A stretch of DNA of 53,336 nt from contig JADFPI010000003.1 of the NCBI GenBank assembly GCA_022562395.1, positions 1-53,336 on the forward strand. Direction: 5' to 3'. Under the pieces are notes generated by a model. The model was not told where the DNA came from, did no database searches, and saw nothing but the letters and a program-made list of their open reading frames with translations. Positions within the stretch are counted from its first letter, which is position 1. Every line of letters starts with the position of its first letter. The DNA comes from Patescibacteria group bacterium. GTDB lineage: Bacteria > Patescibacteriota > Microgenomatia > UBA8517. Both the position numbers and the translations under genes were made by a program. Below, piece by piece: positions 1 through 14,239 of the stretch.

Positions 1-61
1 ACCTTACCCTCATCAGTTCAACCTGAACAATATCCTCAAATGCCTCTAAAATCTTTGACAT
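1..61 (-). CDS. 5' part of a hypothetical protein running off the left edge (MSKILEAFEDIVQVELMRVR...)
   Basis: ATG at 61-59, open to the window edge; TATAAT 7 nt upstream, as for neighbouring genes. Confidence 0.4.
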   Translation of the reverse strand, partial: MSKILEAFEDIVQVELMRVR

Positions 62-83
62 AGAACTTATTATAATTTTAGAG

Positions 84-94
84 CTGGGGAGCCA
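84..94 (+). repeat. Array repeat core only (CTGGGGAGCCA), tRNA-3'-end-like
   Basis: Matches the GGAGCCA core of the downstream repeats and lies between two genes. Confidence 0.45.
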
Positions 95-106
95 GTTGGA
101 ACTTAA

Positions 107-613
107 TTAGTCCTTTTCCAGCAGAAGCCGTACTTGTTTGTCTGTTGGGGTTTCCAGTTCAATTTTTTGCCAAATCCACTGCATATCATCCCTGGCCTCA
201 TCATTAATTTCAAACTGCAACGATTTCATGTCAACTGTGGTGGCGTTGGCCAACAGTTGCATGGAAGCCTGTTCGTCTGGTGTAAGGTTTGGGTAAATAG
301 CTACTCTGAAAATACCAATAAGATTGCTTAATCTTTGTCTGGTGTGGGGCGGAAGCTCGGGCCCAGTCTCTATACTAATGGCAAGCAACCTCTCATAGAC
401 TATCTGCTCTGTGCTGGCCTCCTCATACAAAGGGTATTGCTTAGCTCTTTCAATGTGTTCTGGGTCTAGAAATTCTGCTAACCAAAACTGATTCTCGCGC
501 TCATAGCGAGCTTCTATTCCTGTATCTCCATAAGCTTCTATTCCCTTTTCAGAAGGGTCCTCGGGGTTGTGTCTCCTGTCTGGTAAATAACATGGTCTAC
601 CCTCAATTGGCAT
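107..613 (-). CDS. Hypothetical protein (cassette cargo)
   Basis: Long ORF; ATG at 613 lies 8 nt after TAGTATAAT; no motif recognised. Confidence 0.65.
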   Translation of the reverse strand: MPIEGRPCYLPDRRHNPEDPSEKGIEAYGDTGIEARYERENQFWLAEFLDPEHIERAKQYPLYEEASTEQIVYERLLAISIETGPELPPHTRQRLSNLIGIFRVAIYPNLTPDEQASMQLLANATTVDMKSLQFEINDEARDDMQWIWQKIELETPTDKQVRLLLEKD

Positions 614-639
614 GATGCGCAATTATACTATAAGTTGGT

Positions 640-732
640 AATAAGTTCTAACATCATCCATCAGACGGAGCCACACATTTTTAGCCTCAGATTTGATATA
701 TCCCAGATGGACGTTTGAACCTTTGGTATACT
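640..732 (+). repeat. Array repeat R1: left arm + GGAGCCA core + right arm ending in an extended -10
   Basis: AATAAGTTCTAACATCATCCATCAGACGGAGCCA-CACATTTTTAGCCTCAGATTT...GAACCTTTGGTATACT; homologous to the copies at 991, 1723, 1841, 2454 and 3031. Confidence 0.9.
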
Positions 733-738
733 TCAAAT

Positions 739-996
739 ATGCTCACAATTGCTGCAGTTATTGGTTTTCTTACTGTTGCACTCTCTATTCTTGTAAAAGT
801 GATAGGATTCCCTGACCAAATTAGGAAAAACTTCAAACGTAAATCTACGGAGGGTCTTTCAACATATTTTTACGTTTTGTGGACAACGCACGGGTTTTTT
901 CAAAAAGACAGGGTATTGATTCTTGGATAAGGACTTGGGATTGTTACAACAGGAATAATCTTGTACCAAATTTTTCTTTACCGAAATAAGAAATAG
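739..996 (+). pseudogene. SemiSWEET/PQ-loop family transporter pseudogene
   Basis: GFPDQIRKNFKRKSTEGLS PQ-loop motif; in-frame TAA at 928-930, after which the frame continues as GLGIVTTGIILYQIFLYRNKK to TAG 994-996; TM2 looks shortened. Confidence 0.75.
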
Positions 997-1051
997 GTTC
1001 TAACTTCATAGTTCGGTTTCACTCACTATTTACAATCCATCAGGCGGAGCC
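991..1051 (+). repeat. Array repeat R2 with a small palindromic insertion (1008-1029)
   Basis: AAATAGGTTCTAACTTC[ATAGTTCGGTTTCACTCACTAT]TTACAATCCATCAGGCGGAGCC. Confidence 0.85.
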
Positions 1052-1665
1052 TCTATTTTGTTAGCTATGAAATCTAGTACTTTTTTAATTCCTTTTTCGG
1101 GGTAAGGAATAATAATGTCGGCATATTTTTTAGTTGGGTCTAAATAAGTATTCCATTGTTTAGATATGATTTTCCATCTATTCAAGATCCGTGTCTTTGC
1201 GGTTTCATATTCTTCAGTCCCCTTTTGTTTGGAAGCTAGATCTCGCTTTAGTCTTCTTTCTAAACAAATATTGTCAGGGACATCAATAAACACTTTTATA
1301 TCAATCAGGTCTCTGATATCTTTATCCCAGAAAGTTAAAGTACTTTCGACTAAGATAGTTGGTGCCGAACGATATGATTTTGGTGGTCTGTTTAATTTAG
1401 ATTTTCGGTAAAAATTATTAATTGGAAACACGGCCTTTTGACCTTTCTTCAATTGAGAAAGCCCGGTCTTAAGTTCTTCAATAGCTTGGGATTCCAATGT
1501 GCTTGGGTCCTTACAGTTAAAATCTGCAGAATTAACTAAGAATTTATCTATGTCTATATGTATGGATTTATTTTTACCTAATGCTTTGTGAAGTTCTTGT
1601 GCGAAAGTTGACTTTCCGCTACAGCTCCGCCCCGCTATGCCAATAATTAAAGAGTTTTCGTGCAT
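1030..1665 (-). CDS. Uridine kinase/phosphoribulokinase-family P-loop kinase
   Basis: IIGIAGRSCSGKST Walker A, DIKVFID, RRLKRD, PTKKYADIIIP; C-terminal EAPPDGL* is encoded by repeat R2. Confidence 0.8.
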   Translation of the reverse strand: MHENSLIIGIAGRSCSGKSTFAQELHKALGKNKSIHIDIDKFLVNSADFNCKDPSTLESQAIEELKTGLSQLKKGQKAVFPINNFYRKSKLNRPPKSYRSAPTILVESTLTFWDKDIRDLIDIKVFIDVPDNICLERRLKRDLASKQKGTEEYETAKTRILNRWKIISKQWNTYLDPTKKYADIIIPYPEKGIKKVLDFIANKIEAPPDGL

Positions 1666-1722
1666 AATTTATTATTAACACACATTGTTAACGTAATTCT
1701 AACAGAGCATCAATAGGCATAA

Positions 1723-1755
1723 AAATAGGTTCTAACTTTGTTCATTGTGTGGAAC
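1723..1755 (+). repeat. Array repeat R3a (degenerate)
   Basis: AAATAGGTTCTAACTTTGTTCATTGTGTGGAAC aligns without gaps to the repeat consensus. Confidence 0.7.
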
Positions 1756-1761
1756 TTTTAT

Positions 1762-1869
1762 CTAGTCATTTAGCGTGAGTAGTTCTTTGGTTTGTTGCAT
1801 GATAACTTCAGGGTAATCTATTATTTCTAACCAGTTTATAGTTCGAAAATCGTCCCATCCGCCGAGCCA
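1762..1869 (-). pseudogene. Orphan C-terminal fragment, possibly of a site-specific recombinase (WLGGWDDFRTINWLEIIDYPEVIMQQTKELLTLND*)
   Basis: Open 35-codon frame starting in the repeat core with no start codon; same register as the WLRLMDDVRT tails of other copies; recombinase identity is recollection/inference. Confidence 0.45.
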
Positions 1870-1928
1870 CACATTTTCAGCCTCAGATTTTACCGACCTC
1901 AGTAGGACGATAGAACCTTTGGTATAAT
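1841..1928 (+). repeat. Array repeat R3b: variant left arm + core + full right arm with TGGTATAAT
   Basis: GTTCGAAAATCGTCCCATCCGCCGAGCCA-CACATTTTCAGCCTCAGATTT...GGACGATAGAACCTTTGGTATAAT. Confidence 0.85.
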
Positions 1929-1935
1929 TTCTGCT

Positions 1936-2451
1936 ATGACAAAGATTAAATCCTACAGATCCCCAAAAACTGAAGTTCGGGAAGAAGCTGTTGCAGGGAA
2001 AGGATTATTTGCTAAAGAAAACATCTCAAAGGGTGAAATTGTTTTTGTAAAAAGTGGACATATAGTCAATAAGAAAGACGCACTGAGATACGACAAAGAA
2101 TTAGGTGAATATAGCTTGCAAATAACTGAAGGTCTTTTTTTGTGCCCTACTACAAAAGGAGAGGTAGAAGATACAGCTATTTTTATTAACCATTCTTGCG
2201 ATCCAAATGTTGGGCCCGATGGCCAAATTACTTTTGTGGCTCTAAGAGACATAAAGGTTGGTGAAGAGCTTTGTTATGACTACGCAATGACTACGGACTA
2301 CGATTACAAGCTGGAATGTAAAGGTGGCAACAGGTCTTGTAGAGGAGTTGTGACGGGCAAAGACTGGCAACGGAAAGATTTACAAGAGAAATATGGTAAT
2401 CATTTTACCTATCATATTCTGAAGAAAATAAAATCTAGACGGAGGAAGTGA
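1936..2451 (+). CDS. SET domain protein (lysine methyltransferase fold)
   Basis: GKGLFA, FINHSCDPN, GEELCYDY and a post-SET-like C..G...CRG. Confidence 0.9.
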   Translation: MTKIKSYRSPKTEVREEAVAGKGLFAKENISKGEIVFVKSGHIVNKKDALRYDKELGEYSLQITEGLFLCPTTKGEVEDTAIFINHSCDPNVGPDGQITFVALRDIKVGEELCYDYAMTTDYDYKLECKGGNRSCRGVVTGKDWQRKDLQEKYGNHFTYHILKKIKSRRRK

Positions 2452-2453
2452 GG

Positions 2454-2487
2454 AAATAGGTTCTAACATCGTCCATCAGGCGGAGCA
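2454..2487 (+). repeat. Array repeat R4
   Basis: AAATAGGTTCTAACATCGTCCATCAGGCGGAGCA, starting 3 nt after the SET stop codon. Confidence 0.9.
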
Positions 2488-2520
2488 AAATCTAGACCCG
2501 TTGTGGTCTATGTTTTGCTC
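2483..2520. terminator. Long hairpin directly after the R4 core (terminator-like)
   Basis: GAGCAAAA-TC-TAGACC-CGTTGT-GGTCTA-TG-TTTTGCTC. Confidence 0.5.
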
Positions 2521-2544
2521 TCTGTGGTTTGTGAGAAGTTACCT

Positions 2545-2604
2545 GTAGGTTCGGATACGCGAAGCGGAGAAAGCGGAGGAACGAGTAATCCTACCCGGGG
2601 AGCA
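2545..2604 (+). pseudogene. tRNA(Asn-like) 3' half with an insertion in the T-loop
   Basis: GTAGG-TTCG[33-nt insert]AAT-CCTAC-CCGGGGA-G-CA: T-stem, 7-nt acceptor strand and G discriminator; no D or anticodon arm found. Confidence 0.6.
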
Positions 2605-2702
2605 CTTCGATTTGCTACGCTTCACTCAGTGCAGGCGTGGCGAATTGCAGCTTTTTTGGTAGGATGAGAAATTTACACTGAGCGAGCGCAGTGAGTCGAA
2701 CG
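2605..2702. repeat. Inverted pair of REP-like elements (TTCGA..CT.CGCT..CTCAGTG family)
   Basis: 2605-2636 CTTCGATTTGCTACGCTTCACTCAGTGCAGGC versus the reverse complement of 2671-2702, CGTTCGACTCACTGCGCTCGCTCAGTGTAAAT. Confidence 0.6.
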
Positions 2703-2722
2703 TGAGTCCTATCGCCGGAGCA
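2659..2722 (+). pseudogene. Second tRNA(Asn-like) 3' remnant, T-loop disrupted by a REP-like element
   Basis: GTAGG...GAGT-CCTAT-CGCCGGA-G-CA. Confidence 0.5.
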
Positions 2723-2725
2723 ACT

Positions 2726-3001
2726 TTATTCTATGCTGAACATTAAGGCATCTGTGCCCGCACCAGTGAGTTTTGGAGTGGAAATGCTAAATCCCATTCT
2801 TACGGTGCGTCCCTGGTTTGTATCTTGAAGGTACTTTAATGCCGCCATAGCCTCTTCTACTGTTATTCTGTCCCTTTTATAGAAATTTTTTTCCCCTGCT
2901 CGTGTAACAATAACAATATCTTCTTGCCCTTCAAAAGGAGATCTCTCAAACGATAGTGACGAGATTAGTTTTTCTATATCAGGAGCGCCTTTTGATTCCA
3001 T
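2726..3001 (-). CDS. Hypothetical protein (cassette cargo)
   Basis: 91-aa ORF fills the interval between the core ending at 2722 and R5; TGGTAAAAT upstream. Confidence 0.6.
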   Translation of the reverse strand: MESKGAPDIEKLISSLSFERSPFEGQEDIVIVTRAGEKNFYKRDRITVEEAMAALKYLQDTNQGRTVRMGFSISTPKLTGAGTDALMFSIE

Positions 3002-3030
3002 TTTTTGTAAAGATGCACTATTTTACCATA

Positions 3031-3119
3031 AAACAGGTTCTAACTTCATTCATCAGGCCGAGCCAATTTCTTAACCTCAGATTTTGATAATCGGAAAAGG
3101 TAGGCTTCTTTGCTAGAAT
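3031..3119 (+). repeat. Array repeat R5 with right arm and extended -10
   Basis: AAACAGGTTCTAACTTCATTCATCAGGCCGAGCCA-ATTTCTTAACCTCAGATTTT...TGCTAGAAT. Confidence 0.85.
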
Positions 3120-3125
3120 CAAGGT

Positions 3126-3437
3126 ATGGATAAAATCATAATTTTTATAGTTGGTGTCTTGGTGGGTGGGTTTTTAGTCTGGGTAATAAAGAGAAGAAAG
3201 AGCGGCTTTGCGGCCTTCAATCTTAAAAGGCAGCAGGCAAAAAAGGAGGGAAAAAAGAAAATACTGAAATTATTGAAAGATAAAACAAGTATTTCTAACA
3301 ACGATGTCGAGAGACTACTTAGTGTTTCTGATGCAACGGCGACCAACTACCTTCAGGAGTTGGAAAACGAAGGCAAAATTGTCCAAATTGGTAAAACCGG
3401 CAGATCTGTTTCCTACAGCCTCAAAATAAACGGCTAA
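3126..3437 (+). CDS. Membrane-anchored winged HTH protein (DeoR-like HTH)
   Basis: N-terminal TM helix; ISNNDVERLLSVSDATATNYLQELENEGKIVQIG. Confidence 0.75.
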   Translation: MDKIIIFIVGVLVGGFLVWVIKRRKSGFAAFNLKRQQAKKEGKKKILKLLKDKTSISNNDVERLLSVSDATATNYLQELENEGKIVQIGKTGRSVSYSLKING

Positions 3438-3458
3438 CACTATAGTATTAGCCGTTTA
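3427..3458. repeat. 32-bp near-perfect palindrome over the HTH gene stop
   Basis: TAAACGGCTAACACTATAGTATTAGCCGTTTA, one mismatched pair. Confidence 0.8.
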
Positions 3459-3471
3459 CGGTAAAACTAAA

Positions 3472-3502
3472 CCACACATTTTTGGCCTCAATATGGTATA
3501 AG
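3472..3502 (+). repeat. Array repeat R6 (right arm only) plus -10-like element
   Basis: CCACACATTTTTGGCCTCA-ATA-TGGTATAAG, 7 nt before the aquaporin ATG. Confidence 0.65.
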
Positions 3503-3509
3503 TATCCAA

Positions 3510-4100
3510 ATGAAAAAGAAATATATTGCGGAATTTATCGGTACATTTACGTTAGCTCTTTTGATTGTACTTTCCGCAAATAATTCATTGATGCCAACGC
3601 CGTTGATTGCTGGATTGACTTTAATGCTGCTTGTCTACCTCATTGGAGCAATTTCGGGTAGCCATATTAATCCTGCGGTAACCATTGGTTTATTATCAGT
3701 TAAAAAAATCTCTGGCAAAGAGTCGCTAAAATACATAGTTTCGCAAGTATCGGGCGGTCTCACTGCACTTGCTTTAGTGTCTATGTTTGGATTTGCCGTC
3801 AGTTCTCCAGGGGCAATAAGAATGGAGCTTTATTTCTTTGAATTTCTAGGAATGGGGCTATTTACTTTTGGGATAGGGTTTATAGTTTTTAATAAAATCA
3901 ACACAGCTTTTGACGGGGTGATCATCGGCCTGTCACTTCTTTTAGGAATTCTTATTTCGGTTTATGGCGGTGCAGCTGGAATACTTAACCCTGCAGTTGG
4001 CATAGCACTTAAAACAACTTTTGTAGAGTATTATATTGTTCAGTTTCTTGGTGGCGTTGCAGGCTTTCAATCAGCAAAATACTTATATAATTCTAAATAA
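3510..4100 (+). CDS. Aquaporin/MIP family channel
   Basis: AEFIGTF, SGSHINPAVT and LNPAV (two NPA motifs). Confidence 0.9.
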   Translation: MKKKYIAEFIGTFTLALLIVLSANNSLMPTPLIAGLTLMLLVYLIGAISGSHINPAVTIGLLSVKKISGKESLKYIVSQVSGGLTALALVSMFGFAVSSPGAIRMELYFFEFLGMGLFTFGIGFIVFNKINTAFDGVIIGLSLLLGILISVYGGAAGILNPAVGIALKTTFVEYYIVQFLGGVAGFQSAKYLYNSK

Positions 4101-4259
4101 ACCAACCCACCTTCATCGCGGGCAAGATGATATTTCCTATTTGGATTTATCCGGTGATTAGAAGTTAACTTAGGCAATAAGCCTAACTCCACTTACTCAT
4201 TCCCTAATTTCAATCTCTTCATTGTATGTCGTTAAAATAGAATCTGGTAGAATTTCATT

Positions 4260-4589
4260 ATGGCTCAACCGTATTTAGACCAGCTCAAGAAATTAGTAAA
4301 GGATGCTGGGCAAGAGAAGCTAGAGTGTAAGCATTTTTTTAGCGGTGCCGCTTGCTATACAGATGGTAAAATATTTGCTTCACTCACGTCCAAAGGTTTT
4401 GCCTTAAAGCTACCTGAAAAGGCGAGAAGTAAACTTATTAGGCAGCGGGGTAAAGCCCTTCGGTATTTCCCAAAAGCTCCGGTTAAAAAAGACTACGTTG
4501 TGTTGACAAAGGAAATGGTGAAGAATGCTGAAACTTTTAAGAAGCTGATAAAAATAAGTATGAAATATGCACAAACTAGAAAAACTTAG
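4260..4589 (+). CDS. TfoX/Sxy N-terminal domain protein
   Basis: KHFFSGAACYTDGKIFA...FALKL...KKDYVVL pattern. Confidence 0.7.
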   Translation: MAQPYLDQLKKLVKDAGQEKLECKHFFSGAACYTDGKIFASLTSKGFALKLPEKARSKLIRQRGKALRYFPKAPVKKDYVVLTKEMVKNAETFKKLIKISMKYAQTRKT

Positions 4590-4607
4590 ACTAACGATAG
4601 TTTAAGG

Positions 4608-4805
4608 CTATTTTTTCTTCTTCTCTTCCTTATTTTTGCGCCAACCGCCCCAGCAGCAAAGGCATCTTTTTCCAAAAAAAGCCGAGACACCAAATGCAAT
4701 TATTAAAAGCGGCCAAAATATGCCCCAGACATTACTTGGCAAGTAGCCTAGGTTGCTAAGTAACCAGATTCCGCCTACTATTATTAAAAACAAGCCCCAA
4801 AACAT
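4608..4805 (-). CDS. Small membrane protein (DUF5668/LiaF-TM-like)
   Basis: GLFLIIVGGIWLLSNLG...WPLLIIAFG; GGGGGTGA SD upstream. Confidence 0.7.
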   Translation of the reverse strand: MFWGLFLIIVGGIWLLSNLGYLPSNVWGIFWPLLIIAFGVSAFFGKRCLCCWGGWRKNKEEKKKK

Positions 4806-4880
4806 TGTTTATCACCCCCTAATACAACTTAAGTATATTATATTAGCTCTGACTTTAATAATAACCCGCCCTGGAGGAAT

Positions 4881-5045
4881 CTAGTTTTGCCGCTTCCAGG
4901 CGAGGATGAAGCCTGCTAGCGCTCCTAAGGTGCTAAAGATAATCGAAGAGATTGAAATTAAGCCCGCACCCCACAGTTTTGGTATGTAGGCTCCGATTGT
5001 CGAACCGATAAAGATGGCGATGTAAATAACTACCTTTGAAGACAT
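4881..5045 (-). CDS. 54-aa membrane protein, absent from the ORF track
   Basis: MSSKVVIYIAIFIGSTIGAYIPKLWGAGLISISSIIFSTLGALAGFILAWKRQN*; TAGAAT 5 nt before the ATG. Confidence 0.6.
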   Translation of the reverse strand: MSSKVVIYIAIFIGSTIGAYIPKLWGAGLISISSIIFSTLGALAGFILAWKRQN

Positions 5046-5090
5046 AAGCTATTCTACATCCTTAAAACCCGTTGCGGGAGTTAAGTATTT

Positions 5091-6068
5091 CTAGCAGCCT
5101 TCGTATGTTCCCCCGCAGGAGTGACATCTGTAACCTGCTGATATGACTGAGTTTATTGGAGTTCCGCAGTTTCCGCAGCTTACAACGTGTTTTGCAGATT
5201 CAGAACTAATTATGGCTTGGGCAAAAGTCTTATCAAAAATACCCAAGTTTGCATCTTGTAGACTTTTTAAGGCTTCCTGATTGGAAATTCCACAACTTCC
5301 ACTTGCTTGGAGAAGTATTCCGGAGGCTGCTAATTCGGCCTCCATCATTGCGCCGGCCGTCATATAATCGTAAGCCCTCTCCGCTGCCAGAATTAGATTG
5401 TAATATTTTTCAACTACCGGTTTTGCTAAGCGCTTCATTTCCTCTTTTGCCCTAATATCGTCTGCCCCCCTTACTTTTTCCCAAATTTTTGGCTCGTCAA
5501 TTAGTCCTTCGAGATATTCAAACCAAGTTAAACTTTCAGGAGGGTTGAAAAAGACAGGGGAAGCCCTAAGTTTATTGGAAGAGCCAACCTCGGCAAAATT
5601 TTTGTCTGAAGTGCTAGCTATTTCTTTGGCAAGATTTGCACATTCACTTTCAGAATAAGGCAGGCAGAAGGCTCGATATAGTACTTCTGTGTTGCCGTTG
5701 TCACCTTTTGTTTCATAAACCATTAGGCGGGCTTCCGAGTAGCCAAACTCGCTGCTCGGTGGACTTATCCAGGCTAAATTTTTGGATTGCTTCTCTCTCG
5801 CCCAGCGCTCGATAATCAGAAAACCGTGGTTTTCTAAATAATCCGACTTGGTATCCCAACGCAGCTTAACTTTATTTCCCAAAGTATCGTAAAGATGCCC
5901 ATCTTCGTTAAGATAAAGAACTCCTGTGTTTATTCTTTCTTCCGGCGGAGACTCTCTTTGCTCAATTGAAGCAGCGGCAAAATCCTCAACGGTTCTTTCT
6001 ATTGCCTCGCCAATTAATTCATCTTCTTTGGGAAGCCAGTTTCTTGTATCTAGTGCAAGTCTTTCCAT
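5091..6068 (-). CDS. Hypothetical protein with C-terminal Zn-ribbon (CxxC...CxxC), riboswitch-preceded
   Basis: 325-aa ORF with AGGAG SD; SCGNC...RCHSCGGTYEGC. Confidence 0.75.
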   Translation of the reverse strand: MERLALDTRNWLPKEDELIGEAIERTVEDFAAASIEQRESPPEERINTGVLYLNEDGHLYDTLGNKVKLRWDTKSDYLENHGFLIIERWAREKQSKNLAWISPPSSEFGYSEARLMVYETKGDNGNTEVLYRAFCLPYSESECANLAKEIASTSDKNFAEVGSSNKLRASPVFFNPPESLTWFEYLEGLIDEPKIWEKVRGADDIRAKEEMKRLAKPVVEKYYNLILAAERAYDYMTAGAMMEAELAASGILLQASGSCGISNQEALKSLQDANLGIFDKTFAQAIISSESAKHVVSCGNCGTPINSVISAGYRCHSCGGTYEGC

Positions 6069-6109
6069 TTTTCTCCTGCTCGGAATATCCCGCCTAAGGC
6101 GGGAAGAGA

Positions 6110-6290
6110 TTGCTAGTTTTCTGGCTTCCGTCCTTCGCGTAAAGCTTCGGAACGGTTACAGTTGCGGCACAGCTGGGGATTTACACCCCATTCCTTTACC
6201 CCAAGAGAGATAGCTAAAGCATCTCACGGGGTAGCCCGTTTGATACTTGCTAAAGCAAGTTATCTAACCGGGCAACACAATCTCTAGCAA
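6110..6290 (-). ncRNA. Cobalamin (B12) riboswitch
   Basis: Minus strand: P1 TTGCTAG/CTAGCAA, AAAGGAATGGGGTGTAAATCCCCAGCTGTGCCGCAACTGTAA and B12-box GGAAGCCAGAAAAC. Confidence 0.85.
6197..6273. repeat. REP-like palindrome doublet, copy 1 (inside the riboswitch)
   Basis: TACCCCAAGAGAGAT..ATCTCACGGGGTA + GCCCGTTTGAT..ATCTAACCGGGC; inverted homologue of 6706-6779. Confidence 0.85.
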
Positions 6291-6367
6291 GATTATTGAC
6301 TAGATTTTCAAATATTTCAAGACTCGTCTGGCGAGTCAAGTAGCGTTTTATGATATTATGAACTAAA

Positions 6368-6436
6368 GTGGCAAGCGGGATAGCTGCATCAATTGCTTAT
6401 TTTGTTGGATTTTTGCTTGGGAAGTATGTGGTTTAG
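6368..6436 (+). pseudogene. Possible C-terminal remnant of a membrane protein (VIT1/CCC1-like end)
   Basis: VASGIAASIAYFVGFLLGKYVV*, with no upstream gene body. Confidence 0.3.
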
Positions 6437-6454
6437 CCCCGCACCAATTTTGCT

Positions 6455-6715
6455 ATGTATTATGTATATGTTTTACAAAGCAGGAAGGATAAAGGGCTAT
6501 ATACAGGTTACACGGATGACTTGGAAAAAAGATTAAAAAAGCATAAACAAGGTTTGGTCATATCGACAAGAAGTAGAAAACCTTTAAACATTATTTATTA
6601 TGAGGCTTGTTTAAATAAAAGGGATGCACTTCATCGCGAGAAGTATTTAAAAACGGCTTGGGGCAAGAAATTTATTAAAAATAGATTGAGGAATTACTTA
6701 AGAGGTCCCAGTTAG
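6455..6715 (+). CDS. Stand-alone GIY-YIG nuclease
   Basis: YYVYVL...LYTGYT.DL..RL..H...YYEA...A..RE..LK. Confidence 0.9.
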   Translation: MYYVYVLQSRKDKGLYTGYTDDLEKRLKKHKQGLVISTRSRKPLNIIYYEACLNKRDALHREKYLKTAWGKKFIKNRLRNYLRGPS

Positions 6716-6779
6716 ATAGTCCCTTTGGGACATCAAACGGGATCCCGTGAGATGCTCTAGAAGAGCTATTTCACTGGGA
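6706..6779. repeat. REP-like palindrome doublet, copy 2 (contains the GIY-YIG stop codon)
   Basis: TCCCAGTTAGAT..ATCAAACGGGA + TCCCGTGAGAT..ATTTCACTGGGA. Confidence 0.85.
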
Positions 6780-6792
6780 GGAGGTGAATGAA

Positions 6793-6969
6793 ATGAAGAA
6801 AAAGGACATAAGGACTCTTTCTCAAGTTCTAATAGGGGGTGCTGTTATTTCTGTGCTTTTGTCAGGGATTGGCTACACGGGGGCAGACATCTGGCTTGCT
6901 TCAACCCAATGGCTTTTGGTAGCGGCCGTTTTGGCATTATTTGGGGTGTACACCAGGCTTGAGTCGTAA
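6793..6969 (+). CDS. Small two-TM membrane protein
   Basis: GGAGGAGGTG SD; hydrophobic ORF. Confidence 0.65.
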   Translation: MKKKDIRTLSQVLIGGAVISVLLSGIGYTGADIWLASTQWLLVAAVLALFGVYTRLES

Positions 6970-6974
6970 GCGGG

Positions 6975-7006
6975 GCGGAAAATACGCGGAAAATACGCGG
7001 AAAATA
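6975..7006 (+). repeat. Tandem 11-mer GCGGAAAATAC x~3
   Basis: Read directly from the sequence. Confidence 0.8.
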
Positions 7007-12790: not shown

Positions 12791-13236
12791 CAATTTATAT
12801 AGCAGCTGACCATGGAGGTTATTGGTTAAAAGAACAGATAAAGCAGGATTTAAGGCAAAAAGGAAACGAAGTTAAGGATTTAGGAAATAGCAAGTTTGAT
12901 TCAGGCGACGATTATCCTGATTTTGTCATCCCGGCTGCCGAGTCTGTGGCACAAGACCCAAAGGGTTTCGGTATTGTTATCGGGCGGTCTGGAAATGGAG
13001 AAGCAATTGCTGCCAATAAAGTAAAAGGTGTCCGGGCCGTACTTTGTTTAAATCCCGAGATGGCCAAAAAAGCGAGAGAGGATAATAATGCTAATGTATT
13101 AGCTCTAGGCGCCGATTTCGTCGATGTTTCCAAAGCAGGCAAGATAGTGGAAGTTTTTTTAGACACTCCATTTCCGGAGGAGGACAGACACGTTAGGCGC
13201 CTAGCTAAGATTACCTCTTATGAAGGATCTTCCTAA
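12787..13236 (+). CDS. rpiB: Ribose-5-phosphate isomerase B
   Basis: AADHGG, DYPD, SGNGEAIAANKVKGVRA, NNANVL, RHVRR. Confidence 0.92.
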   Translation: MTIYIAADHGGYWLKEQIKQDLRQKGNEVKDLGNSKFDSGDDYPDFVIPAAESVAQDPKGFGIVIGRSGNGEAIAANKVKGVRAVLCLNPEMAKKAREDNNANVLALGADFVDVSKAGKIVEVFLDTPFPEEDRHVRRLAKITSYEGSS

Positions 13237-14239
13237 AATAAGCGATTTAGATATTCAGGGAAAGAAAGTATTGGTTAGGGTGGATTTGGACTACAAAGAC
13301 CTGCCTGCTCGCGCAGGTGATGTAAGTGGTACAAAAAGGCAAGAGGCGCTTTTGGCAACTTTAGAATATTTGGTCGAAAGAGCCTCCGAGATAATACTTT
13401 TAAGCCATAGAGGTAGACCCGGTGGTAAAACTGATGATTCTTTGAGTACCAAACCTGTCGCCGATAGACTGGAGGATTTTTTAAGAAAAAAATGGGGAGA
13501 AGAAAAAATTAAAAGATTTAATATGTTTATAATGGAGAATCTGCGTTTCAATCCTGGGGAGTCCCTCGACTACACTCGGGATAAAGAGGCAAAAGAATTC
13601 GCGGAGCACCTAGCCGAAGAAGGAAACGCATATGTGAATGAAGCTTTTGCCTCAAGCCACAGAAAACACGCATCAATTGTCGCTCTGCCAGGTTTATTGC
13701 CGCATGCAGCAGGGTTTCATTTTGTTAAGGAAGTAGAAAATCTGGGTAGGGTATTGGAGAATCCCCGAAGGCCGGTTGTAGTAATTATTGGCGGGGTGAA
13801 AGAGGATAAGCTAACTTATGTTGAACCTTTTAAAAAGTTTGCGGATAGGATTTTAATAGGAGGAAGACTGCCCACGTTTTTACCGGAAGATTACAAGGAA
13901 GAAAAGGTAGTTGTGGCTAAACTAAATCAAGACAGGCAAGATATAACGCTAAACTCAATTGAAGAGTTTGAGAAAGAGATTGCTAAAGCAAAAACTTTAG
14001 TGGTTTCGGGTCCGATGGGGAAGTTTGAGGACGAGGGCCAAAGGTTGGGGACAGAAAGAGTATTAAAGGTAGCGTCAGAATCGTCCGCTTTTAAAGTTGT
14101 AGGAGGCGGAGATACCCAGCGTGCACTCTCTACTTTTGGATTATCTGATAAATTTGACTGGGTATCGGTAGGGGGAGGTGCAATGCTTGAATTTTTAGCA
14201 AAAGGAACTTTACCAGGAATAGAGGCGCTGCTAAACTGA
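13220..14239 (+). CDS. pgk: Phosphoglycerate kinase (shortened)
   Basis: SHRGRP, ENLRF, YVNEAF..SHR.HAS, GPMGKFE, GGGDT, SVGGGAMLEFL.G.LPG. Confidence 0.9.
   Translation: MKDLPKISDLDIQGKKVLVRVDLDYKDLPARAGDVSGTKRQEALLATLEYLVERASEIILLSHRGRPGGKTDDSLSTKPVADRLEDFLRKKWGEEKIKRFNMFIMENLRFNPGESLDYTRDKEAKEFAEHLAEEGNAYVNEAFASSHRKHASIVALPGLLPHAAGFHFVKEVENLGRVLENPRRPVVVIIGGVKEDKLTYVEPFKKFADRILIGGRLPTFLPEDYKEEKVVVAKLNQDRQDITLNSIEEFEKEIAKAKTLVVSGPMGKFEDEGQRLGTERVLKVASESSAFKVVGGGDTQRALSTFGLSDKFDWVSVGGGAMLEFLAKGTLPGIEALLN

Follow-up and report, generated by a model that had tools for sequence, protein, structure and literature searches.

Candidate attachment half-sites of a tRNA-targeting serine recombinase family between one-gene units of a Patescibacteria contig

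The first 3.5 kb of the window, by which we mean the whole 53,336-nt contig JADFPI010000003.1 (C31) of a Patescibacteria group bacterium, are occupied by a two-part direct repeat that separates single genes and whose minus-strand translations are homologous to the extreme C-termini of large serine recombinases (LSRs) of related genomes. We consider it probable that these repeats are P'-type attachment (att) halves of an LSR family that targets tRNA genes, and that the units between them are cassettes stacked and reshuffled by an LSR acting in trans. This interpretation builds on the homology of the tails, on a constant register of the sites, and on joints between units that vary among samples; the insertion pathway, any enzyme-controlling role of the tails, the left half-site type, and the site pairing required for stacking are inferred. 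The genome comprises 0.92 Mb in 52 contigs and is 94.7% complete.

Repeat array and recombinase tails

The repeat consists of a core and a right arm. The core, of about 35 nt, reads AAATAGGTTCTAACATCATCCATCAGGCGGAGCC on the plus strand and was found at 644–672 (R1), 995–1051 (R2, split by an insert), 1722–1757 (R3a), 1834–1869 (R3b, diverged), 2453–2488 (R4), and 3030–3065 (R5). The right arm, of about 60 nt, starts with CCACACATTTTTAGCCTCAGATTT and occurs at 673–733, 1870–1929, 3065–3125, and 3472–3500. A position matrix derived from 13 copies of the core scored 30.5–56.4 bits for the copies in the window (R1, 53.6; R3a, 30.5; R4, 56.4; R5, 48.3) and 10.2 bits for R3b, whereas the maximum in shuffled genome sequence (600 kb) was 5.3 bits. 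On the minus strand, the cores of R1, R3a, R4, and R5 read WLRLMDDVRTYY, KFHTMNKVRTYF, LLRLMDDVRTYF, and WLGLMNEVRTCF, respectively. Each interval between repeats holds one gene, encoding a PQ-loop protein, a uridine-kinase-like protein, a SET-domain protein, a 91-aa protein, a helix-turn-helix (HTH) protein, and a MIP channel; the units measure 0.1–1.2 kb, each with one intact gene.

Repeating the minus-strand translation reproduced exactly the five tails listed in an earlier note on this DNA, which had taken the repeats to encode interchangeable C-termini: R1 (623–742, ...YTKGSNVHLGYIKSEAKNVWLRLMDDVRTYYQLIV and stop), R3a (from the core at 1722–1757), R3b (1762–1935, ...YTKGSIVLLRSVKSEAENVWLGGWDDFRTINWLEIIDYPEVIMQQTKELLTLND and stop), R4 (2435–2494, LLRLMDDVRTYFLTSSV and stop), and R5 (3018–3122, ...NWLGLMNEVRTCFMVK and stop). 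The long tail of R3b, which we call type 3, is encoded at 1762–1869 and reads WLGGWDDFRTINWLEIIDYPEVIMQQTKELLTLND up to its stop codon. The assertion that the tails lack indels holds for these five copies and fails for R2, a sixth copy that had been left out, in which about 30 inserted nucleotides containing two stop codons divide the minus-strand reading into RLRLMD, CK-stop-stop-VKPNYE, and VRTYF. Two tRNA-like copies indeed stop almost at once, after VLPG (about 2585–2605) and LLRR (about 2706–2726).

A resemblance of the tails to C-termini of Patescibacteria LSRs had been proposed, and related genomes bore out that they form the extreme C-terminal end of these enzymes. In two relatives, the core terminates open frames of 116–120 aa that represent the C-terminal part of LSRs, and the full-length LSRs of relatives (476–505 aa; 485–520 aa is the range for related Patescibacteria overall) end with ...KPFDTILNYADSQLW followed by LPR, LRR, or LPG and a stop codon. 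This stop codon falls within the 3' end of a tRNA gene read in antisense, the tRNA being that for Asn, Gln, or His or one interrupted by a group I intron. The database comparison suggested for the 35-aa tail of R3b was positive: residues 481–516 of the 517-aa homolog P0003 matched window positions 1875–1768 with 50% identity (E 2.3e-7), and tblastn revealed a second copy of this tail on contig C41 of the same genome. P0003 and the enzyme of locus L060 (4155–5642) each matched PF00239, PF07508, and PF13408 (Resolvase, Recombinase, and zinc-ribbon), and precomputed annotation lists these three domains for most of the 111 database homologs. We found no close relative of P0003 among viral contigs and no sequence match between P0003 and solved structures.

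Classification of the residues following the W of these 111 homologs gave 44 short tails (up to 4 aa), 38 tails read through the antisense of a tRNA (..DSN..), seven type 2 tails (..VRTY/F) as in R1, R3a, R4, and R5, three type 3 tails (W..WDDFR..YPE..LL) as in R3b, and 15 other long tails, while four were not placeable. A short or tRNA-derived tail was thus carried by 82 of the 111, and a type 2 or type 3 tail by 10. In relatives, the tail depended on the junction, tRNA joints giving WLPR, WLRR, or WLPG before the stop, endings that match the LPG and LRR of the two tRNA-like copies in the window, and other joints giving longer tails. The proposals that the att site lies inside the 3' end of the recombinase gene, and that the joint determines the tail, apply to the relatives, where the site is antisense to the tRNA 3' end; in the window, no enzyme is attached to the site and all tails are enzyme-less. 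The stretch YTKGS..KSEA.NVW upstream of the tails, which had been read as a shared upstream frame, does not encode recombinase: it shows no similarity to ...KPFDTILNYADSQLW, the LSR sequence preceding the tail, the tblastn match begins at W, and the stretch is the antisense of the conserved right arm.

The genome yielded no match to the Resolvase family PF00239 and none to a 114-aa C-terminal LSR query. Searching it by tblastn with seven LSRs returned only tail segments, on C31 and C41, and no recombinase pseudogene remnant between the units. The tails in the window are orphans, none of them joined to an enzyme.

Cores were also located on other contigs of the genome, namely C36 (166 and 1099), C41 (2752), C29 (51848), and C20 (339). 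The two on C36, a 3.2-kb contig, lie ahead of tRNA-His (complement of 1602–1677) and tRNA-Arg. No tRNA-Asn was present among the 45 tRNA genes predicted by ARAGORN on the 52 contigs. Beyond this genome, arrays with the core extend to further genera within the family and the class, and arrays were located in G053, G100, G028, and G004. The distance between a SET homolog and a core is about 1 kb in G016, and in G100 the nearest core is about 2 kb away. LSR 3' fragments of 101–181 aa are present in the arrays of relatives. A Levybacteria contig (L123) contains five cores that are separated by single genes and followed by an LSR fragment and tRNA-Asn. At L070, two full elements stand in tandem with their LSR genes 6.5 kb apart, and each enzyme reads into the arm of the next element.

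Two further observations concern recombinases of relatives. The full-size elements at L070 and L096 (3.7–5.2 kb and 5.7–7.1 kb) have a common module upstream of the recombinase, presumably composed of a SpoVG-like gene of 97–98 aa (judged by eye from the N-terminus) and a gene of about 380 aa. At L133, positions 13049–14215 of the plus strand encode a 388-aa protein with Recombinase and zinc-ribbon domains and without a Resolvase domain, which ends with WLRLMDSIRTYY; the same tail thus also occurs in a separate recombinase lineage with a shortened N-terminus.

Candidate crossover point, site register, and selection on the tails

The position of the putative crossover was bracketed by the point at which related junctions diverge. 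In G050, a full LSR gene and an LSR fragment are near-identical over their last 60 nt up to TTGGCTCC, past which one of them runs into tRNA sequence and its counterpart into a core of type 2. The sole block invariant across the aligned junctions (5/5) was TTGGCTCC. Of 27 type 2 copies, six remain attached to the 3' coding part of a recombinase gene, and all of these keep the TGG, compared with six of the 21 orphan copies. Because the fused copies all keep TGG and few orphans do, TGG would belong to the left arm, and exchange would take place in CTCC or just after it. The crossover thus appears to lie within or just after TGG-CTCC, the antisense of the ...GGAGCCA end of the tRNA.

Measured from TGG, the T-loop hexamer (TTCGAA-like) begins at 18 nt in all 24 tRNA-type junctions (33 rows examined) and at 23 nt in type 2 and type 3 cores. 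The core accordingly resembles the antisense of a tRNA end with five extra bases, its TTMGAAC motif standing 5 bp farther out. The DNA motif of the zinc-ribbon domain (ZD) of serine integrases is described as shifted 5 bp toward the centre in attB relative to attP (PMC3783163). Since the shift of 5 bp fits this rule, we regard the cores as candidate P'-type (element-side) half-sites and the two tRNA-like copies in the window, T1 and T2, as putative relics of the B'-type (host-side) half-site. As presented in the same source, the element site of the Listeria LI/A118 integrase likewise has this distal motif 5 bp farther from the centre (PMC3783163). The half-site length agrees as well, the core reaching about 30 nt from TGG. 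Unlike the Listeria LI/A118 site, the putative site here lies inside the enzyme's own gene. By eye, no convincing inverted copy of GTTAGAACC, which symmetry would place in the left half-site, was recognized in the recombinase-side arm or the right arm, and the far end (B-O-P') of the full-size elements at L060–L069 was not found within the flanks examined. By eye, ATGATGTTAGAAC resembles the arm of dif that XerD binds, and an Xer/dif-like site was considered for this reason; it was dropped after the link to serine recombinases was found.

T1 (2540–2600, plus strand) comprises GTAGGTTCG, a 33-nt insert, AATCCTAC, CCGGGGAG, and CA, and its antisense reads LPG and stop; T2 (2690–2722, plus strand) ends with GAGTCCTATCGCCGGAGCA, and its antisense reads LRR and stop. 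Both consist only of the T-stem and the acceptor 3' strand, with inserts of 33–45 nt. No complete tRNA cloverleaf exists at either: ARAGORN predicted no gene in the window, and Rfam gave no tRNA match in 400–4300 even at E up to 10; no other RNA family was detected in that region either.

The earlier note had expected substitutions biased as in coding sequence. Such a bias was present, to a modest degree for the short tail and more clearly for the 35-aa tail. For the 12-codon type 2 stretch (27 distinct copies), column entropy by codon phase was 0.70/0.68/1.01, with the third phase the most variable (permutation p 0.03), and the ratio of nonsynonymous to synonymous differences (pN/pS) was 0.54 in the claimed frame versus 0.83 and 0.93 in the other two, although one antisense frame also gave 0.54. 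Because its most constant columns, CTCC and GTTAGAAC, are those expected for the crossover and the ZD motif, constraint at the DNA level explains much of the conservation of the short tail. For the 35-aa tail, 20 codons extend beyond any plausible half-site, and over these, four DNA copies keep the pattern W..F/YR...W.....Y/FPE.......L at 42–63% nucleotide identity, with a pN/pS, calculated beyond codon 12, of 0.53 versus 0.85 and 1.36 in the other frames; the pattern is also kept in P0003, P0062, and P0087. This selection must have operated while the arm was translated as the end of an enzyme, and it need not act in the present genome. Since the fold is complete up to W and 82 of the 111 homologs have a short or tRNA-derived tail, the supposed truncation of the enzyme at the tRNA would strip an add-on rather than a domain.

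The arrangement most likely works as follows. The LSR would recombine a site within the end of its own gene with the 3' end of a tRNA, such that the sequence past the crossover is read as the tail of the enzyme, giving WLPR, WLRR, or WLPG from the tRNA, and WLRLMDDVRTYF... or the 35-aa WL..WDDFRT..YPE..LL from the arm of an element. Units devoid of the enzyme and composed of a right arm and a core may have been inserted and exchanged at the same point, accumulating beside the tRNA, and each joint would retain a P' core readable as an enzyme tail. In the window, six P'-type cores and two tRNA-end relics would then divide about 3.5 kb into one-gene units from which the enzyme was lost or in which it was never present, and an LSR supplied in trans would have stacked these cassettes and would still reshuffle them.

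Variation among samples and weighing of explanations

To describe variation of the array, we compared the window with contigs assembled from twelve sequencing runs. Of the sampled words of window positions 1–5000, run X1 held 0.84 and the eleven runs X2–X12 about 0.30. Contigs of X2, X3, and X5 covered 2717–7000 and did not cover 1–468, 1171–1404, or 1873–2106; the uridine-kinase unit and most of the SET unit were without coverage, which is no proof of absence from the samples. The order and content of the units differed between samples, with breakpoints at cores: alternative joints connected 1051 to 3073 (X2, side of 61 nt; also X3), 730 to 3073, 1863 to 2600, 1863 to 2718, and 3034 to 995 (X5, side of 57 nt), and an X3 contig had an uninterrupted tRNA T-arm at the tRNA-end relics (T1 or T2). 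The units of the window thus form a recombinase-less stack that is bounded by att-type repeats and has variable content (X2, X3, X5).

The right arm is common to four units and is also present in other genera. It carries a TGnTATAAT-like box, read by eye, ahead of a plus-strand cassette gene. In R1 (673–733; repeat family D1, 76% identity to 1840–1929), the arm runs from CCACACATTTTTAGCCTCAGATTT to the box TGGTATACT ahead of the ATG at 739 of the PQ-loop gene; in R3b (1870–1929), TGGTATAAT precedes the ATG at 1936 of the SET-domain gene; the diverged arm of R5 (3065–3125; family D7) has TGCTAGAAT ahead of the ATG at 3126 of the HTH gene; and the arm of R6 (3472–3500; family D6), the final repeat of the array, has TGGTATAAG ahead of the ATG at 3510 of the MIP-channel gene. 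The boxes stand 6–8 nt before these ATGs. They may be promoters on this by-eye reading; a sigma-70 scan, which needs a –35 hexamer, did not list them, as no such hexamer is present. R6 has no core on its left in the window, and a contig of the X1 sample has a core ahead of position 3473.

Several points weigh against a stack of cassettes moved in trans. The genome has no LSR gene or fragment, hence nothing here is able to move the units, with the limit that the assembly consists of 52 contigs with arrays at contig ends, so that an LSR copy may be unassembled. Stacking at an occupied tRNA would require site pairings for which canonical serine integrases depend on a helper factor. The right arm is unlike the recombinase-side arm of a true recombinase gene, its half-site type is not assignable, its recurrent motif GAGGCTAA stands at varying distances from the core between copies, and a plain promoter would equally explain its conservation. 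The joints derive from assembled contigs at 90% likeness rather than from raw reads, and some of their sides are short (24–30 nt) and may stem from repeats or other organisms. X1 is probably the source sample, and its contigs are interrupted at repeats, so that the order in the window could represent one variant among several or be partly chimeric. A free circular form or circle junction was not seen in these assembled contigs, where several joints have short sides.

The array might alternatively be a decay series, in which full-size islands bearing recombinases arrived successively at the tRNA and then lost the recombinases and most of their cargo, leaving units that are not mobile. The tandem full-size elements at L070, the LSR 3' fragments of 101–181 aa in the arrays of relatives, and the resemblance of T1 and T2 to decayed tRNA ends agree with such a history; it sits poorly with units of 0.1–1.2 kb that each hold an intact gene, with intervals free of recombinase remnants, with a right arm conserved in four units and in other genera, and with an order and content that vary by sample and break at cores, and we regard it as unlikely. 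That the tails are working parts of a protein, with a junction-specific C-terminus setting integration versus excision and the copies conserved through translation, appears distinctly improbable. The pN/pS of 0.54 in the claimed frame, the type 3 pattern kept over 20 codons beyond the half-site, and the type 2 or type 3 tails on 10 of the 111 full-length homologs speak for it, and precedents are provided by Mx8 (as reported in PMC6070905) and by an idea raised for dsiB (in PMC3146451). Nevertheless, the genome has no recombinase and nothing in it is translated as an enzyme tail, most homologs manage with short or tRNA-derived tails, the most conserved columns of the short tail coincide with the expected crossover and ZD motif, and an antisense frame scores equally while the phase test reaches only p 0.03.

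An integron-type array with attC sites and a tyrosine integrase, or tRNA 3' fragments displaced by islands of tyrosine integrases, would account for one-gene units and for cores that resemble tRNA ends, and the genome does encode two tyrosine recombinases. These are located on other contigs (C40 and C15), with none near the array, and appear Xer-like by eye from their size and the sequence of the one on C15. As single strands, the repeats folded no better than shuffled sequences (z 0.95 for R1, 0.11 for R3b, and 0.78 for R5), which led us to reject attC-like folding. The constant 5-nt register shift relative to the tRNA end and the cores joined to serine recombinase genes in relatives also contradict this explanation, which is extremely improbable. 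The cassette stack reshuffled by an LSR in trans thus remains our preferred interpretation. Its more far-reaching form would be an integron-like system built on an LSR, with one-gene circles of a right arm and a P' core stacked behind tRNAs and junction-specific tail isoforms biasing capture versus release; we consider this form quite unlikely.

Related systems and additional observations

To our knowledge, Patescibacteria, with their tiny genomes, have few recognized mobile elements, and our literature searches found no published description of such a system in this group. SCCmec and other SCC elements, moved by LSRs (CcrAB and CcrC), form stacked units, some of them recombinase-less, and have short direct repeats that also encode a protein end. 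In SCC, however, the tail that the repeat restores is that of rlmH, the target gene, instead of that of the recombinase, and the target is a protein gene rather than a tRNA.

The closest precedent appears to be the ssrA islands of Dehalococcoides. In the account of these islands, dsiB overlaps attP/attL and its stop codon depends on the junction, and tandem islands built by accretion are bounded by direct repeats, some without recombination genes and termed cis-mobilizable (PMC3146451; McMurdie et al., 2011). The authors suggest there that DsiB may reach full function only in the circular state or when a neighboring island provides the 3' fragment (PMC3146451). As far as that account describes DsiB, a CcrB-like LSR targeting the tmRNA 3' end at the T-loop, the enzymes of the relatives share with it the LSR type, a 3'-end target in a tRNA or tRNA-like gene, and a site in the gene end (PMC3146451). 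Unlike the ssrA islands, which span many kb, the units here are single genes of 0.1–1.2 kb; ordinary tRNAs serve as targets (in relatives, those for Asn, Gln, and His and one that bears an intron); there is no partner small recombinase or integration module; and the tails are conserved peptides common to several genera in a Patescibacteria host.

For the myxophage Mx8 (IntP/IntX), attP is reported to lie inside the integrase gene, so that integration makes a new 3' end and modifies the specificity of the enzyme (PMC6070905). Unlike the LSR arrays, Mx8 is a phage with a tyrosine integrase and without cassette arrays. The suggestion of a junction-dependent tail is already known, from Mx8 and from dsiB (2011). 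What is new is the occurrence in Patescibacteria, with ordinary tRNAs as targets, units of one gene, and tails conserved across genera. The tycheposons of Prochlorococcus resemble the present array, in the features described for them, by a streamlined genome, variable islands anchored at tRNAs, displacement of older islands by newer ones, and partial-tRNA scars, and 910 of 937 use tyrosine recombinases (bioRxiv 10.1101/2020.12.28.424599). Integrons likewise have one-gene units, but they use IntI and folded attC sites, and no such folding was found here.

If the preferred interpretation is correct, the reshuffling of one-gene cassettes at serine-recombinase sites, in stacks anchored at tRNAs, would be a main source of variation in the accessory genes of Patescibacteria. 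The layout with the site within the gene makes a position-dependent tail and behavior of the recombinase directly testable, with natural tail variants of one family in hand, and the P'/B' pairs would offer immediately usable candidates for the attP/attB sites of new serine integrases.

Other features were noted in and around the array. The uridine-kinase-like gene (1030–1665, minus strand) crosses the R2 core at 1030–1051 in another frame and ends with ...IEAPPDGL and a stop codon; at R2, the last codons derived from the repeat thus belong to a cargo gene rather than a recombinase. A strong hairpin at 2482–2522 (–15.5 kcal/mol, z –3.8) directly follows the R4 core. It is flanked by the SET gene and T1, does not belong to the repeat family, and is the only such structure adjoining a repeat. 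A possible seventh joint at 61–100 (...GCTGGGGAGCCA) retains the acceptor-end block but has no core to its left; read on the minus strand, the segment has TATAAT 8 nt ahead of an ATG at 60–58, the gene running off the contig. At 3277–3510, summed contig depth was 5–10 times that of the neighbors in all four runs (75, 455, 107, and 53), and the end of the HTH unit with the R6 arm appears to recur across many contigs or contexts.

Outside the array, 6368–6775 (406–408 nt) was replaced by about 39 other letters in contigs of X2, X3, and X5, which looks like a separate insertion/deletion polymorphism; the segment holds a 39-nt palindrome (6706–6779). The 325-aa gene at 5091–6068 (minus strand) had no Pfam match and has a Cys-rich motif at its end. 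Upstream of it, a cobalamin riboswitch was detected at 6094–6233 (minus strand), with 37.8 bits against a gathering threshold of 31.5.

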